Positions 14,827 through 49,828 of a DNA stretch of 64,000 bases are shown piece after piece. Location: the IMG/VR virus record IMGVR_UViG_3300038427_000078; one strand, 5' to 3'. Within the stretch, counting starts at the first letter, position 1. The number at the start of each line of letters is the position of its first letter. The notes beneath the pieces are model-generated. The model had not been told where the DNA came from. It was given only the letters and a program-made list of their open reading frames with translations, and searched no databases. The translations under genes were made by a program, and so were the position numbers. The DNA is from a virus.

Positions 14827-14922
14827 GCGCCTGTAGCTCAGTGGTCAACGGTTCTCTTCGGGGAGCCAAAGAGTTGCCGCCTTTCAAGCGGTAGGTCCGG
14901 GGTTCGATTCCCCGTAGGCGCA
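14827..14922 (+). tRNA. tRNA-Glu(TTC) with extra hairpin in D-loop
   Basis: Loop CTTTCAA; GGTTCTC-TTCG-GGGAGCC inside the D-loop. Confidence 0.8.
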
Positions 14923-18020: not shown

Positions 18021-18417
18021 GGGCCTTTCCCGGTAATCGATTGGGTAGGTTCGGCAGTATGTCATGCAGCGGTCGTCACACCTACCTGACAAAAGCCATA
18101 ACTGGCAACGCAACAGACACGCTCGCAATCCCCGCATCTCTCTTCGAGGTTCGGGCTAGCGACGTACTCGCTGTAGCCTAAGAAGCTACAAGCCGGGACC
18201 AGCCGAGTATCCTGGGAACAGAAACCTCGGAGGGCAGTGAGCGCCATGCCCTTGACGTGCAGAGTACCGTTGTAGTTACACCGCAAGGTGTTGGTAGCAC
18301 CCCGCGCGTTCCCGGACGTATAACCGGGTGGTGGAGGCGGGCCATGCCTGTCCCAAAGCTGCTAGAAGTGACGCCTGTACGAGACTCAAGACGGCAGTTC
18401 GACTCTGCCAAGGTCCA
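18021..18417 (+). ncRNA. ssrA: tmRNA; tag (A)GNATDTLAIPASLFEVRASDVLAVA at 18104-18181
   Basis: Acceptor GGGCCTT/AAGGTCC-A with G3-U70; T arm GGCAG-TTCGACT-CTGCC; ATAACT-GGC resume context. Confidence 0.9.
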
Positions 18418-18451
18418 CTAAAACAAGGTCCATCCGTGCTAGAATAGATGG

Positions 18452-20273: not shown

Positions 20274-20606
20274 GTGGCATACAAGGATCCTCAGAAGCAG
20301 AAAGAAGCACAGCATCGGTCATATCTGCGTAACAAAGAGATAATCCTCAGGCGCAGTTCTGATCGCATCAAAGAGCTTCGACGCAAAGTGCGAGAGTACA
20401 AGGAGGAGCGTGGTTGTAGCGCGTGCGGGTACAACAAATACGGTGGGGCTATCGATGCTCATCACCCAAACGGCAAGGATAACCAAGAACAGTGCATTGC
20501 CCGTTTGTGCAAACGGGCCTTTCCGTGGGAGACAATCCTTGCGGAGCTTGAGAAGTGCATTCTTCTCTGTTCCAACTGTCATCGCGAGCACCATCGCGGT
20601 GAGTAG
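20274..20606 (+). CDS. HNH endonuclease
   Basis: CSAC...IDAHH...ELEKCILLCSNCHR. Confidence 0.85.
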   Translation: MAYKDPQKQKEAQHRSYLRNKEIILRRSSDRIKELRRKVREYKEERGCSACGYNKYGGAIDAHHPNGKDNQEQCIARLCKRAFPWETILAELEKCILLCSNCHREHHRGE

Positions 20607-22290: not shown

Positions 22291-22353
22291 CTCAGTGGAT
22301 AGAGCGTCCGGTTGCGATCCGGGAGGTCGGCGGTTCGAGTCCGTCCAGGGAGG
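22281..22353 (+). tRNA. tRNA-Arg(GCG)
   Basis: Loop TTGCGAT. Confidence 0.85.
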
Positions 22354-22381
22354 TACGTTAGAACCCTGCTAAGGTGTAGAT

Positions 22382-22561
22382 ATGCCTTACGCAGATAGAG
22401 AGAAACAGGCGGCGTATCAACGCGATTGGTACCGACGCCACAAAGAGCAACATATCAACCGTATTCGTAACGAACGTCGTAAGAGGCGTGAAGTGGTCAA
22501 CGAATACAAGCTCTCAAGAGGGTGTAACCGATCGCGGGTTCGATTCCCGCATAGTGCTTAG
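22382..22561 (+). pseudogene. Truncated HNH gene fused to a tRNA 3' fragment
   Basis: MPYADREKQAAYQRDWY...YKLSRGC resembles the N-termini of 20274 and 23901; runs into GCGGG-TTCGATT-CCCGC. Confidence 0.7.
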
Positions 22562-22568
22562 ATCAAAC

Positions 22569-23155
22569 TTCGTATCAGGCGGTTGCTGCGCTTGAAAGAC
22601 AGCGTAGAGGAAGTTCGGGGCATGCTGGCAGGGGAAACCTTGTCATCGGCTCAACTACACCGAGTGACACCGGCCCAAAGGAGGTACGCCCTCGTTGGTG
22701 TTCCGGCGCATGCAACTCCAAGTAGAGAACCCTACGGCGAAAGCTATGGGCATATCGGGTTGGAGGCTTAGATGGATGATCGCCACCAGTTACGACTCAG
22801 AGGAGAGACATGAACTACTGTGAAGCGATGGCCTACGTCGCGGGGCTGTTGGAGGGCGAGGGATGCTTCGATTTCGTAGCTCCCGGCCATCCAAGGATCC
22901 GCATGGAGACAACAGATGAAGATGTGGCATACTGGCTTCAACACTTGGTTGAAGGTGGGACAATCACTAATCGTCAGGGCAAACGCAGTAATCACAGCGA
23001 TTCGTTTGTGTGGCAAACGAGCAGGGCTGATGTGGTCAAGAAGGTCTTGACGGCAATCTATCCTTGGACAAGTGCTCGCAGGCGAGTAAAGATTGATGAA
23101 CTCATGTCTGCTCTCTGAGCCGTAGTTGGTACAGAACCCCGGCTATCGATACGAA
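22569..23155 (+). ncRNA. rnpB: RNase P RNA (minimal) interrupted in P19 by an ORF
   Basis: P1 TTCGTATC/GATACGAA; P2 GGCGGTT/GATCGCC; GAGGAAGTTCGGGGC (22607) pairs with ACAGAACCCCGGCT (23131) as P4 with bulged U; AGATGGAT. Confidence 0.88.
22810..23118 (+). CDS. Single-motif LAGLIDADG homing endonuclease
   Basis: AYVAGLLEGEGCF; SD AGGAG. Confidence 0.85.
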   Translation: MNYCEAMAYVAGLLEGEGCFDFVAPGHPRIRMETTDEDVAYWLQHLVEGGTITNRQGKRSNHSDSFVWQTSRADVVKKVLTAIYPWTSARRRVKIDELMSAL

Positions 23156-23196
23156 TATGCCCCTCGGCTCTGTTCAGAACGGCTTGGGGGCACCAA

Positions 23197-23270
23197 GCCT
23201 GTGATGCAGAAATGGTGCTGCGCTCGCCTTGTAAGCGAGAATAGACTCGGTTCGATTCCGAGCATAGGCT
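23197..23270 (+). tRNA. tRNA-Thr(TGT)
   Basis: Loop CTTGTAA. Confidence 0.85.
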
Positions 23271-23434
23271 CTGACTGCGCTCTTGCAAGCACCGGGAACC
23301 GGCGTGCGGCAGAGCGGCGCGCTGGTCACCCGTGGCTAGTCCTCATTTGCTCAACGCACCCCGGATTAGGGATTGGGCAGGCTAGTCTAGTGTGAGTACC
23401 CACTGATCGCGATGAGCGTGAGGGGAAATCCAAT

Positions 23435-23505
23435 GCGGATGTGGCGTAATGGTAACGTATTTGCCTTCCAAGCAAAGGTTGCGGGTTCGACTCCCGTCTT
23501 CCGCT
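23435..23505 (+). tRNA. tRNA-Gly(TCC)
   Basis: Loop CTTCCAA; U73. Confidence 0.9.
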
Positions 23506-23850: not shown

Positions 23851-23900
23851 CTCATAACTCACAGGCTCCTTTCGAGCCATTTCCGGGCGCATAATGCTTG

Positions 23901-24245
23901 ATGGCATACAAGAACAAGGTCGATCAAGCAGCCTCTTCTCGTCGTCATTACCTTCGTAACCAGAAGGCGATGAAGGAGAGGGCTGAACTCAAGAACCGCG
24001 AACGTCATGCAGAATACGCGGAGAAGATCAAGGTTGCGAAGGCTAGACCTTGCGCCGATTGCAACATCGAATACCCTCACTACGTCATGGACTTCGATCA
24101 TGTGCGTGGCAAGAAGGTCGGGAACGTATCGACCATGGCTCATGCCTTGCGACCTTGGAAGCTGATCGAACAAGAGATTGCGAAGTGCGATGTCGTCTGT
24201 TCTAATTGTCATCGAGAGCGTACGTATGTTCGACTCTCCGCATAG
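23901..24245 (+). CDS. HNH endonuclease
   Basis: CADC...MDFDHVRG...EIAKCDVVCSNCHR. Confidence 0.88.
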   Translation: MAYKNKVDQAASSRRHYLRNQKAMKERAELKNRERHAEYAEKIKVAKARPCADCNIEYPHYVMDFDHVRGKKVGNVSTMAHALRPWKLIEQEIAKCDVVCSNCHRERTYVRLSA

Positions 24246-47196: not shown

Positions 47197-47715
47197 ATGG
47201 ATAGCTTATGTGAGTGTGGTTGTGGGAAAATGGCTCCTATCGCAACCAAGACAAACGTTTCAAGGGGTCATGTCAAAGGACAACCTGTGCGATTCATTCG
47301 CGGACATTACAAAGGCGGTAGTCCAGGCCGTCGTGTGCCAATTTGGGATATTAGCGAAGATGGGCGTATGGCGACGGGGGAATGTAAGCGGCATGGCATT
47401 GGAAAGTTCGTTCTTCGAGGCGATGGGACAATGCGTTATCGTTGCCAATCTTGCGCTAGCATGCACGCTCGCAATTGGAATAAACGACGTAAGGAAACGC
47501 TTGTCAAGGAGCATGGGGGCAAGTGTGTTATTTGCGGATACGATAGATACCTGGGCGCTTTTCATTTCCACCATCGGGATCGTACGACAAAGGAGTTTCA
47601 TGTGAATCAACATGGACCTGGAATTGAGGCAGCGCGGGTAGAGGCAAAGAAGTGTATTCTGCTCTGTGGCAACTGTCATTCCGAGGTTGAGGGTGGGTTC
47701 AGTGAGCTTCCGTAA
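47197..47715 (+). CDS. HNH endonuclease
   Basis: CECGCG...CVICGY...FHHRD...KCILLCGNCH. Confidence 0.88.
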   Translation: MDSLCECGCGKMAPIATKTNVSRGHVKGQPVRFIRGHYKGGSPGRRVPIWDISEDGRMATGECKRHGIGKFVLRGDGTMRYRCQSCASMHARNWNKRRKETLVKEHGGKCVICGYDRYLGAFHFHHRDRTTKEFHVNQHGPGIEAARVEAKKCILLCGNCHSEVEGGFSELP

Positions 47716-47722
47716 GGACTCT

Positions 47723-49828
47723 ATGACCGTGCAGCCGCTCGCCAGTGTCAAGGAGGCTGCTCGCGCACCAGACTACGCCGAATACGGTGGCTGGTGGGGC
47801 TTCAACGACAAGCAGTTCCGGGTCTACGGCGGCTATCTCAACGGACAGCTTGTCGGCTTCGGCGTGGTCAAGCTCGACAGCGACGTGCCGAGAGTCATCG
47901 TGGTTCACTCAGCGGTTCGTGAGGACGCCATGAACGAGGCCATGCTCCGTCGCATCGCGCTCCACTTCCCGAGCCTCAAAGCCGGTGCTGACAGCCCGGA
48001 GGAGGAACGCCTCCTATCCCGAGTGGGACTGCTTGAGGCACAGCCGGGACTATGGCTCAAGATCGCTGGTCAGGAAGGCAAGGACATCTTGCAAGCGCCG
48101 ATCCCGTTCGTCTACGATGTCGAAAAAGACGAAATCGAAGTCGGGCACCCCGGCCAGAAAACAGCGGACGTGCAAGGCGAGTTCACGCCGGGTGGTATAG
48201 TGGAGGGCTACTATGAACCTGGCGGCAAGATGGTCATCACGACCAAAACATCGATCCCCTACACGAACTACCACATGGTACAATTGTGGTATTGGAGTCA
48301 TCCAACGTTGGAGGTAACAGGAGTGGACTATGAAAACACAGGACAGAAGAAGGTCAAGCTCGCATCGGAGGATGTCGGGCAGTACATCCGCACACTCGCG
48401 TCTGCTGACCCTGCGGCGTGGAAGGCGTATCAAGCTCTTGGTGCTGCTGGCGGTCACGTATATGTGGTGGGCGGTGCGGTCCGCGATGCCCTCCTACAAC
48501 GTCAACCCAAGGACATTGACTTGCTGGTTGGTGGTCTACCTAGCGAGGAGGTTCACCGAATCCTTACGTCACTCCCTGGACAGGTTGACATGCGCGGTTC
48601 GAGGTTCGGCATCTACGTCTACCACACGCACGGCAAAGAGGTAGAGATTGCGCTTCCACGCAAAGACGACTACGAGGGTGGCAAACGCGCTGATGTGAAA
48701 ATCAGCGCCGACCCGAACCTACCTATCGAGAAGGATCTGGAACGCCGTGACTTCACCGCGAACAGCATGGCCGTGGACCTCAACAGCGGTCAACTCATTG
48801 ACCCATTCGACGGCTCAGGCGACATCAGCCGTGGCGTGCTTCGCACCACTCACCCGAAGTCATTCAAGGAGGATCCGACGAGGCTTATGCGTGCGCTCAC
48901 CGCTACCTCGCGCTTCGGCCTAGAGCCGGATGAGAAGACGAGGGCCGAGATGGGTGAATCCGCGCACATGCTCGACCATGAGTCACCGGACGCCCTACGG
49001 GTCCAGCTAGAGAAACTGATGGTGAGCGCAAACCCGGCACGGGCGGTACGACTCGCGCAGGAAACTGGCGTGCTTCACCACCTATTCCCGGAGCTTGCGG
49101 AGAACTACGACTTCGACCAGCACAATCCACACCACAACTACTCCCTTGGCGACCACTCACTACAGGTGCTCGACAACATGGCGCGAATCACACCTAACCC
49201 TGACATGCGCCTCGCTGCGTTGCTTCACGACATCGGCAAGCCGGGGTCGCAGTGGTTCGACGGTCACGGTGTGGCTCACTACTACCCACGTCCGCAGCAC
49301 CTAGACGCAGAACTCGCTCCTGGGGGTAAGTGGCAGCGTGCCGAGAATTGGGGCGCGGACCACGCAGCCTTGGGCGCGAACATGGCCGAGGCCCGCCTGC
49401 GTCAGACCTTCAACTACCCGGTGGAGAACATGCGCCGCATTCACTCACTCATCAACGCCCACATGTTCGGCAACTTCGAGAAACCGAAGGGGGCACGCAA
49501 GTTCCTACAGCAGAACGGCCAGCACGCCGACGACCTACTCACACTGCGTGAATGCGATGGGGAGGGCAAGGGCACCGAGAGCACAGACAATGTGGAACAG
49601 ATGCGCCAACTCATCGAAAACGAGCGACAGCAGGGTGCTCCCACCACTCAGTCCGCGCTAGCTGTCAACGGTAACGACATTATGGGCCTTGGCATAAAGG
49701 CAGGCCCGCAGATCGGCACCATTCTGCGCCAGCTAACAGATGACGTGGTAGACGATCCGAAACTCAATGACCGCGAAGCTCTCCTACAGCGCGCTCAGGA
49801 ATACGCCGATGCTCAGCCAGGTAGCTAA
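47723..49828 (+). CDS. cca: Class II tRNA nucleotidyltransferase (CCA-adding) with HD domain and extra N-terminal domains
   Basis: VGGAVRD...KDIDL, DLERRDFTANSMA, EDPTRLMRA, LLHDIGK, VNGNDIM...GPQIG. Confidence 0.88.
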   Translation: MTVQPLASVKEAARAPDYAEYGGWWGFNDKQFRVYGGYLNGQLVGFGVVKLDSDVPRVIVVHSAVREDAMNEAMLRRIALHFPSLKAGADSPEEERLLSRVGLLEAQPGLWLKIAGQEGKDILQAPIPFVYDVEKDEIEVGHPGQKTADVQGEFTPGGIVEGYYEPGGKMVITTKTSIPYTNYHMVQLWYWSHPTLEVTGVDYENTGQKKVKLASEDVGQYIRTLASADPAAWKAYQALGAAGGHVYVVGGAVRDALLQRQPKDIDLLVGGLPSEEVHRILTSLPGQVDMRGSRFGIYVYHTHGKEVEIALPRKDDYEGGKRADVKISADPNLPIEKDLERRDFTANSMAVDLNSGQLIDPFDGSGDISRGVLRTTHPKSFKEDPTRLMRALTATSRFGLEPDEKTRAEMGESAHMLDHESPDALRVQLEKLMVSANPARAVRLAQETGVLHHLFPELAENYDFDQHNPHHNYSLGDHSLQVLDNMARITPNPDMRLAALLHDIGKPGSQWFDGHGVAHYYPRPQHLDAELAPGGKWQRAENWGADHAALGANMAEARLRQTFNYPVENMRRIHSLINAHMFGNFEKPKGARKFLQQNGQHADDLLTLRECDGEGKGTESTDNVEQMRQLIENERQQGAPTTQSALAVNGNDIMGLGIKAGPQIGTILRQLTDDVVDDPKLNDREALLQRAQEYADAQPGS

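Follow-up and report, generated by a model that had tools for sequence, protein, structure and literature searches.

A LAGLIDADG endonuclease gene in the P19 position of a putative phage RNase P RNA, apparently tolerated without an intron

The DNA analysed here (the window) comprises 64,000 nucleotides (nt) of the IMG/VR virus record IMGVR_UViG_3300038427_000078 and comes from a tailed peat-soil phage of about 172 kilobases (kb), in which terminase, portal and tail genes are present. The locus of interest is a gene for a putative RNA of ribonuclease P (RNase P), interrupted by a 346-nt insert (22785-23130) that carries an open reading frame (ORF) for a putative LAGLIDADG homing endonuclease. 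The insert lies between the 3' strands of helices P2 and P4. In the Rfam alignment of the phage relative L068, the segment from the P2 3' strand to ACAGAA is an unpaired variable region and corresponds to the site of helix P19 where P19 exists. Uninterrupted phage relatives have either nothing or a short hairpin at this site, the junction in RNAs of the L029 and L068 type being GAUGAUCG...ACAGAACCCCGG. A sequence-only reading of the window had listed the RNase P core motifs (P1, P2, P3, P4 with its bulged U, AGAUGGAUG and ACAGAAC) and a LAGLIDADG ORF of 102 amino acids (aa) in the P19 position. All of them were found where it had placed them, and the pairing was confirmed base by base. The features are collected in Table 1.

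The core of the RNA, without the insert, contains the two conserved strands of P4, one GAGGAAAGUCCGGGC-like and the other ACAGAACCCGGCUUA-like. Nucleotides 22612-22614 and 22616-22620 pair with 23137-23144 around the bulged U22615, and the register is that of Escherichia coli M1 RNA (GAGGAAAGUCCGGGC), not shifted. Both the AGAUGAAUG-like strand of J18/2 and the P15/L15 GGU element are present. The P15 region contains a CGGGUUGG element at 22756-22763, a motif kept across the family of phage RNase P RNAs; it resembles the L15/P15 GGU region of E. coli M1 RNA, and by analogy with that RNA it may bind CCA. The specificity domain is a reduced one of about 82 nt; RNAfold folds it into three hairpins, one of them with a GAAA cap, and it cannot be aligned to the specificity domain of Rfam. 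P18 is absent.

Table 1. Elements of the RNase P locus, with positions counted from the first nucleotide of the window
Feature	Position	Strand	Details
Putative phage RNase P RNA gene	22569..23155	+	587 nt with insert; 241-nt core without insert
P1 5' strand, partner 23148-23155	22569..22576	+	8 of 8 Watson-Crick pairs, base-by-base check
P2 5' strand, partner 22778-22784	22578..22584	+	7 pairs, 2 of them G-U
P3 hairpin (22586-22592 / 22601-22607)	22586..22607	+	7 base pairs, 8-nt loop
J3/4 and P4 5' strand, conserved AGGAAGUUCGGGG (end of GAGGAAGUUCGGGGC motif)	22608..22620	+	U22615 bulged
P5 (22621-22625 / 22708-22712) around reduced specificity domain	22621..22712	+	RNAfold
P15 CUCCAA / UUGGAG (22716-22721 / 22760-22765)	22716..22765	+	inner GAAA-capped hairpin
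J18/2 AGAUGGAUG and P2 3' strand	22770..22784	+	motif (AGATGGATG) at 22770-22778
5' arm of P19-position helix	22785..22813	+	Shine-Dalgarno GAGGAG 22800-22805, start codon 22810
Putative single-domain LAGLIDADG homing endonuclease gene	22810..23118	+	102 aa / 102 codons
3' arm of P19-position helix	23102..23130	+	last codons and stop codon 23116-23118
J19/4 and P4 3' strand, conserved ACAGAACCCCGGCUAUC	23131..23147	+	ACAGAAC at 23131-23137
P1 3' strand	23148..23155	+	base-by-base check

The RNA was compared with Rfam (gathering thresholds for the full window, E <= 10 for the three segments 22350-23440, 22560-22800 and 22565-23160), where the native sequence does not reach the 100-bit gathering threshold of RF00010, and with profiles of phage relatives. 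An nhmmer profile built from 17 uninterrupted phage RNase P RNAs, L012 and L024 included, matched the window in two collinear pieces, 22581-22784 (profile 15-247, E 4e-7) and 23124-23150 (profile 249-275, E 2e-4), and the break in the profile coincides with the insert. A custom covariance model (R1), made from seven uninterrupted relatives with an RNAalifold structure of only 24 pairs, did not bridge the insert; it matched the 5' part (22585-22811) with 20.6 bits (E 7e-8) and the 3' part weakly, with 3.8 bits.

The relatives themselves were identified in IMG/VR phage contigs. The 15-mer of the P4 5' strand retrieved about 20 distinct RNAs, located inside tRNA arrays and with ACAGAAC 170-300 nt downstream, and the 3'-strand 15-mer about 15 further RNAs (L253, L257, L262, L268 and L244 were discarded as chance occurrences in coding DNA). 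Two relatives are above the RF00010 threshold, L012 with 191 bits and L024 with 124 bits. Full-length matches below it were obtained for L037 (67 bits), L029 (54), L068 (53), L082 (32) and L004 (28), with E from 4e-18 to 4e-5; in L068 Infernal swaps about 140 consensus positions of the specificity domain for local ends. The P1 sequence varies yet remains complementary in L081, L068, L033, L029, L012 and L002. P1 and P2 differ in sequence in nearly all members of the family with their complementarity kept, and this includes pairing across the insert in the window and in L081. By sequence and pairing, the window RNA is thus a putative miniaturised RNase P RNA of the bacterial type-A-like kind and a member of a phage mini-RNase P family.

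The ends of the insert form an inverted repeat of 29 nt (79% Watson-Crick), which ranks first in the whole window and comprises 26 pairs, three of them G-U, in blocks of 10, 8 and 8 base pairs (bp). The energy of this duplex is -35.4 kcal/mol, compared with -13.4 +/- 3.5 kcal/mol in 2000 shuffles (z = -6.3). The helix of about 29 bp that had been claimed between 22785-22813 and 23102-23130 is therefore real at the level of pairing, and it does bury the Shine-Dalgarno sequence and the ATG in its 5' arm and the end of the ORF, with the stop codon, in its 3' arm. The ORF fills 309 of the 346 nt. The other 37 are non-coding and form the closing stem, so there is no room for an intron. Group I and group II intron families gave no match at E <= 10 in Rfam at the window locus, and bulge-helix-bulge geometry is absent at the insert, in agreement with the earlier claim that no intron core is present. 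That claim's companion, P19 as a dispensable peripheral helix, agrees with PMC12974513, which describes P19 as a helix that stacks on P2, varies in length and has been lost repeatedly. The P19-like stem that encloses the ORF may have arrived with the element and not have been there before it.

The same insertion site was identified in two further RNAs, those of the phage-like contigs L069 and L081, which are about 50-56% identical to the window RNA. Their inserts likewise comprise an ORF and a closing stem, with no intron core. In the three loci the closing stem has its own unrelated sequence and directly adjoins P2 and P4; it measures about 8-11 bp in L081 and L069 (-9 and -12.6 kcal/mol), against 26 bp and about -36 kcal/mol in the window. 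Helix P4 presents double changes across the insert, from G-C to A-U in L081 and from U-G to G-C in L069 and L082. P1 is TAGTTCC/GGAACTA in L081 and TTCGTATC/GATACGAA in the window, paired in both, and P2 and P15 also covary in the comparison of the window, L069 and L081. From these patterns of substitution, the ribozyme probably tolerates its passenger. The sequence-only reading had proposed tolerance without splicing, with excision by an enzyme such as RNase III as one way to it. The first part is favoured by the recurrence in L069 and L081 and by the paired state of P1, P2 and P4; the second is weakened as a general mechanism, because the stems of L081 and L069 have only about 8-11 bp. In the window, the 26-bp stem would be suited to RNase III, and it would also keep the halves of a two-piece ribozyme together.

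The protein encoded in the insert is a putative single-motif homodimeric LAGLIDADG homing endonuclease, as judged from its sequence and from a structural model. Its match to Pfam LAGLIDADG_3 (E 0.0015) is below the cut-off. A profile of the family matched solved enzymes over one domain, I-HjeMI with 9e-9 and I-AniI with 2e-8, and the bI3 maturase was also among the best matches. The motif AGLLEGEGCF is invariant in seven homologues, including the acidic residues E15 and E17. The predicted homodimer scored 0.85, where the best of three controls reached 0.01; it has a predicted local distance difference test (pLDDT) value of 92 for the partner, contact agreement of at least 94% and an interface formed by residues 4-17. 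In calibration the mark for this score was passed by 20 of 30 solved homo-pairs and by 1 of 23 single chains, and the pass may owe to likeness with solved LAGLIDADG dimers. Assembled contigs that encode the identical protein number at least 20 and come from samples of peat type and others; the longest, NODE_91 of ENA ERZ4200889, has 172,635 bp, and the peat samples with the phage include JGI 3300009636, 3300018017 and 3300018023.

The close relatives of this endonuclease have a common address. In all 11 members with known context, the window included, the gene is found at a phage RNase P RNA gene, and in each case at its 3' end. Inside P19 are three: the window, L069 (49% identity) and L081 (47%). 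The other eight lie outside the RNA, six of them 15-32 nt downstream on the same strand (L068 with 60% identity, L164/L165 with 54%, L278-L280 with 50%, L283 with 43%, L167 and L281 with 42% each) and two in convergent orientation, with the stop codon overlapping the 3' end of the RNA (L080, 48%; L082, 44%). A profile scan of viral and metagenome contigs gave 160 loci, where an RNase P-like RNA was nearby only at L164, L165 and L167; the approximately 157 more distant relatives from the profile scans had no RNase P RNA nearby. Bacterial genomes contained distant relatives alone (<= 40% identity), none of them beside an RNase P-like RNA.

The order tRNA-Gly(GCC), RNase P RNA, tRNA-Thr(UGU) is common to L068, L081 and the window, and in this syntenic locus the endonuclease gene of L068 lies just outside the RNA, that of the window and that of L081 inside P19. 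Degenerate remnants resembling the P4 3' strand were identified behind or within the end of the ORF in L165 and L167. The tree of the clade resolves only the grouping of the window with L068 (85/88), and for this reason no claim is made on the order of events. Taken by their placement, the members of the clade appear to be specialists for the RNase P RNA genes of phages, and within these for the 3' end, as expected of a lineage of homing endonucleases. The homing target would be the conserved end of the RNA gene, comprising the P2 3' strand, ACAGAACCCCGGCUA and the P1 3' strand.

Some further observations concern this clade and other invaded RNase P genes. In L281 a 20-nt direct repeat (491-510 and 871-890, 95% identical) of the 3' end of the RNase P RNA flanks the endonuclease gene and looks like an insertion footprint with duplication of the end of the RNA gene. 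Distant endonuclease relatives (27-30% identity) were found in L273 and L274, contigs of metagenome-assembled genomes assigned to Eremiobacterota / Vulcanimicrobiota, one of them from palsa; both relatives are beside dense arrays of 12-15 tRNA genes, a possible hint to the host or a sign of mis-binned phage. A closer IMG/VR relative of the RNA, L033 (11969-12445, minus strand), contains an insert of about 190 nt in the specificity domain with an ORF of 66-70 codons of unknown function, and this insert is bridged by Rfam (RF00011, 38.5 bits). In L024 (1506-2388, minus strand) and the identical L026, an HNH gene separates a second copy of the 5' part of an RNase P RNA, comprising P1, P2, P3 and the P4 5' strand, from a complete RNA that passes RF00010. 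The upstream partial copy in L024 shows, by eye, better P1/P2 pairing with the 3' end than the copy aligned by Rfam. By eye, a second family of endonucleases (HNH) seems to invade phage RNase P genes at the 5' end, bringing a replacement end.

The neighbourhood of the locus is a tRNA array. Between 12.7 and 23.9 kb of the window, 28 tRNA genes and a transfer-messenger RNA (tmRNA) were identified by ARAGORN, and the RNase P RNA gene is placed within this array with a tRNA-Gly(GCC) remnant on one side and tRNA-Thr(UGU), at 23197-23271, on the other. An ORF of 59 codons (22382-22561) runs into the 3' half (about 22510-22560) of the tRNA-Gly(GCC) gene, a tRNA that is intact at this place in L068 and L081; residues 1-49 are 39% identical to the N-terminus of a 110-aa ORF at 20274-20606. 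We read it as an HNH endonuclease gene that was truncated and fused to half a tRNA, and it lies 8 nt upstream of the RNase P RNA. The 110-aa ORF and another of 115 aa (23898-24245) are full-length, located among the tRNA genes and share their N-termini; by eye both are HNH endonuclease genes, with no Pfam HNH match. The array is thus densely occupied by apparent homing endonucleases. The tmRNA (18021-18418) would encode a tag peptide of 25 residues according to ARAGORN, and no Rfam tmRNA family reached its gathering score in the window. A 96-nt tRNA at 14827-14922 (Rfam 57.5 bits), whose anticodon ARAGORN left undetermined, may contain an intron or a long insertion.

Among the large ORFs of the window, matches to PHROG included the terminase large subunit, the portal (E 6e-149), a tail fibre and ribonucleotide reductase. 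A protein of 720 aa (47666-49828) resembles in its C-terminal part the PHROG tRNA nucleotidyltransferase (E 4e-62). No match to the window was found with blastn among GenBank phages, and a neighbouring protein of 223 aa and the endonuclease, used as single queries against viral contigs, retrieved no relatives.

We propose, with a probability of roughly 60%, that an intron-less LAGLIDADG homing endonuclease gene is tolerated in the dispensable P19 helix of a phage RNase P RNA. In co-infecting relatives whose RNase P RNA genes lack an endonuclease, the enzyme would cut these genes near the P2-3'/ACAGAACCCCGGCUA region, and repair would then copy its gene into the cut RNA gene. The passenger in P19 would be harmless: the ribozyme should stay active, given that this helix is stacked on P2/P3 and faces away from the catalytic core. 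The ORF would either be retained as a giant extension of P19 or be clipped in the loop, and the clipped form would consist of two pieces joined by the P19 stem together with P1 and P4, of 8 bp each. Once formed, the P19 stem would hide the Shine-Dalgarno sequence and the start and stop codons, so that the endonuclease would be translated only from transcripts not yet folded. That the stem sequesters the ribosome-binding site and the start codon can be read plainly from the sequence; the effect of this on regulation we infer. More tentative, and in our view somewhat less likely true than false, is the further idea that the 587-nt transcript serves both as endonuclease mRNA and as an active trans-acting RNase P, with the folding of P19 switching the first role to the second.

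Several points weigh against the proposal. The native window sequence gave no RNase P match in Rfam at any threshold, because Infernal is unable to bridge the 346-nt insert. The specificity domain appears so reduced that activity cannot be assumed. No protein motif of the RnpA type (RNR) was found in the six-frame translation of the window, and a second, intact RNase P RNA may be present elsewhere in the 172-kb phage genome, outside the window. L069 and L081 are short phage-like contigs, the former without its 5' end. Homing could be frequent and each insertion possibly recent, in which case intact helices would be weaker proof of long-term tolerance. Finally, no endonuclease-free allele of the window phage was identified by a gapped pattern in metagenome contigs, and the homing site is therefore inferred. 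The single match of a viral contig to the pattern GGCATANCGGGTTGGRRGC was rejected as such an allele, being a chance occurrence in coding DNA.

The rival that survives best, itself unlikely, is that of a dead gene: the insertion would have inactivated the phage RNase P RNA, the RNase P of the host would be used and the two halves would be undecayed relics. A relic would account for the failure of the native sequence in Rfam, but all core helices and conserved nucleotides are intact. Its surroundings are battered by endonucleases, as the truncated HNH gene fused to half a tRNA-Gly just upstream illustrates; against decay of the locus itself, at least 20 assemblies share this widespread allele in identical form. 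The position of 8 of the 11 clade members outside the RNA looks as if the interior were disfavoured, yet in L069 and L081 the same interior insertion coexists with P1, P2 and P4 kept paired through compensatory changes, and the closing stems are maintained individually.

Much less probable is that the LAGLIDADG protein binds the phage RNase P RNA as its maturase-like cofactor and is not, or not only, a selfish nuclease. The fact that all 11 close relatives are physically linked to genes for RNase P RNA suits a cofactor, but most phage RNase P RNAs (about 30 seen) are without such a neighbour and two of the linked genes are convergent. I-AniI and the bI3 maturase, which are LAGLIDADG proteins able to bind intron RNA, are among the best solved matches, and the window has no RnpA motif; the acidic residues of the motif are nevertheless invariant, as expected of an active nuclease, and the direct repeat of the target flanking the gene in L281 is a mark of mobility. 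An unrecognised kind of intron, spliced out with religation of the RNA, is scarcely credible even if endonuclease genes in structured RNA genes are generally carried by group I or archaeal introns (as with insertions in Candidate Phyla Radiation (CPR) rRNA, PMC11270868), given that no intron family matched, that ORF and closing stem exhaust the insert here as they do in L081 and L069, and that bulge-helix-bulge geometry is missing and the host bacterial.

If the proposed tolerance is correct, the arrangement has some wider implications. To our knowledge, homing endonuclease genes are thought to survive in essential genes only by means of self-splicing introns or inteins. A naked endonuclease gene in a catalytic RNA gene, apparently shielded only by the choice of a dispensable helix, would be a third route to harmlessness. 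The locus would also be a natural insertion experiment on how much foreign RNA the RNase P catalytic domain accepts at P19, and the ribozyme may be a natural case of one in two pieces or of one that carries an mRNA. The RNase P RNAs of phages, apparently unpublished, would be so common and so conserved that a parasite has specialised on them. The dual mRNA and ribozyme, if true, would be a natural ribozyme working with a translated gene in one of its helices and maintained by a specialised endonuclease lineage. Endonucleases that recognise a short, nearly universal segment of a ribozyme gene could serve as tools. The arrangement is recurrent (window, L069 and L081) and directly testable, and its interest is accordingly high.

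With respect to known systems, the sequence-only reading knew of no described example, and a full-text literature search likewise retrieved no paper on phage RNase P RNA and no homing endonuclease within any RNase P RNA gene; papers on fungal mitochondria mention rnpB and LAGLIDADG as separate features. The window RNA shares with the bacterial class A RNase P RNA (E. coli M1/rnpB, RF00010) helices P1-P5 and P15, the bulged U of P4 in register, the GAGGAA...GG and ACAGAAC...GGCU strands, the J18/2 AGAUGRAUG and the CGGGU(A/U)GG element, and its uninterrupted phage relatives are full-length matches to RF00010. Unlike class A RNA, it is phage-encoded, has a specificity domain of about 82 nt, lacks P18, is below Rfam detection and contains a protein gene in the P19 site. 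Its core of 241 nt compares with 377 nt in E. coli and 276 nt in the small RNA of Mycoplasma fermentans (PMC3001073).

The window ORF resembles those of group I introns in being a LAGLIDADG ORF placed in the loop of a peripheral helix of a ribozyme, with ends that reach the stem, a sequestered ribosome-binding site and a conserved target. In group I introns, the endonuclease ORFs of I-CreI, I-AniI and the I-TevI of phage T4 are examples of ORFs that loop out of a peripheral helix. PMC3943268 also deals with such ORFs. Unlike a group I intron, the host in the window is a trans-acting ribozyme, which must work with the ORF aboard or after its loss without religation. The intervening and CPR insertions of rRNA are similar in that they too interrupt a structured RNA gene at a peripheral site, in the latter case with a single-domain LAGLIDADG enzyme of about 100 aa. 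Burgin and colleagues are said to have described in 1990 long-stem intervening sequences of Salmonella 23S rRNA that are cut out by RNase III with no religation. The CPR insertions encode single-domain homodimeric LAGLIDADG proteins of about 100 aa (I-ShaI), and over half of them have group-I-like cores (PMC11270868). The window differs from these rRNA insertions in its host, a phage RNase P RNA, and in the absence of a group-I-like core, and the long stem is not conserved in L081 and L069.

Free-standing endonucleases are also found in phage tRNA clusters, for example SegB of T4, of the GIY-YIG type. Like SegB, the nuclease gene of the window is situated among phage tRNA genes with a conserved RNA-gene target beside its own site, and 8 of the 11 members of its clade are free-standing; in contrast, it is a LAGLIDADG gene with another target and is located inside the RNA gene. 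Finally, the nuclear RNase P RNA of Candida glabrata, of 1149 nt, is described as functional with large peripheral additions (Kachouri et al. 2005, as related in PMC3001073). Those insertions are eukaryotic, non-coding and non-mobile, whereas the window insert is coding and phage-borne. The new element in this comparison is the host gene, a putative trans-acting ribozyme that is unable to splice its passenger out.

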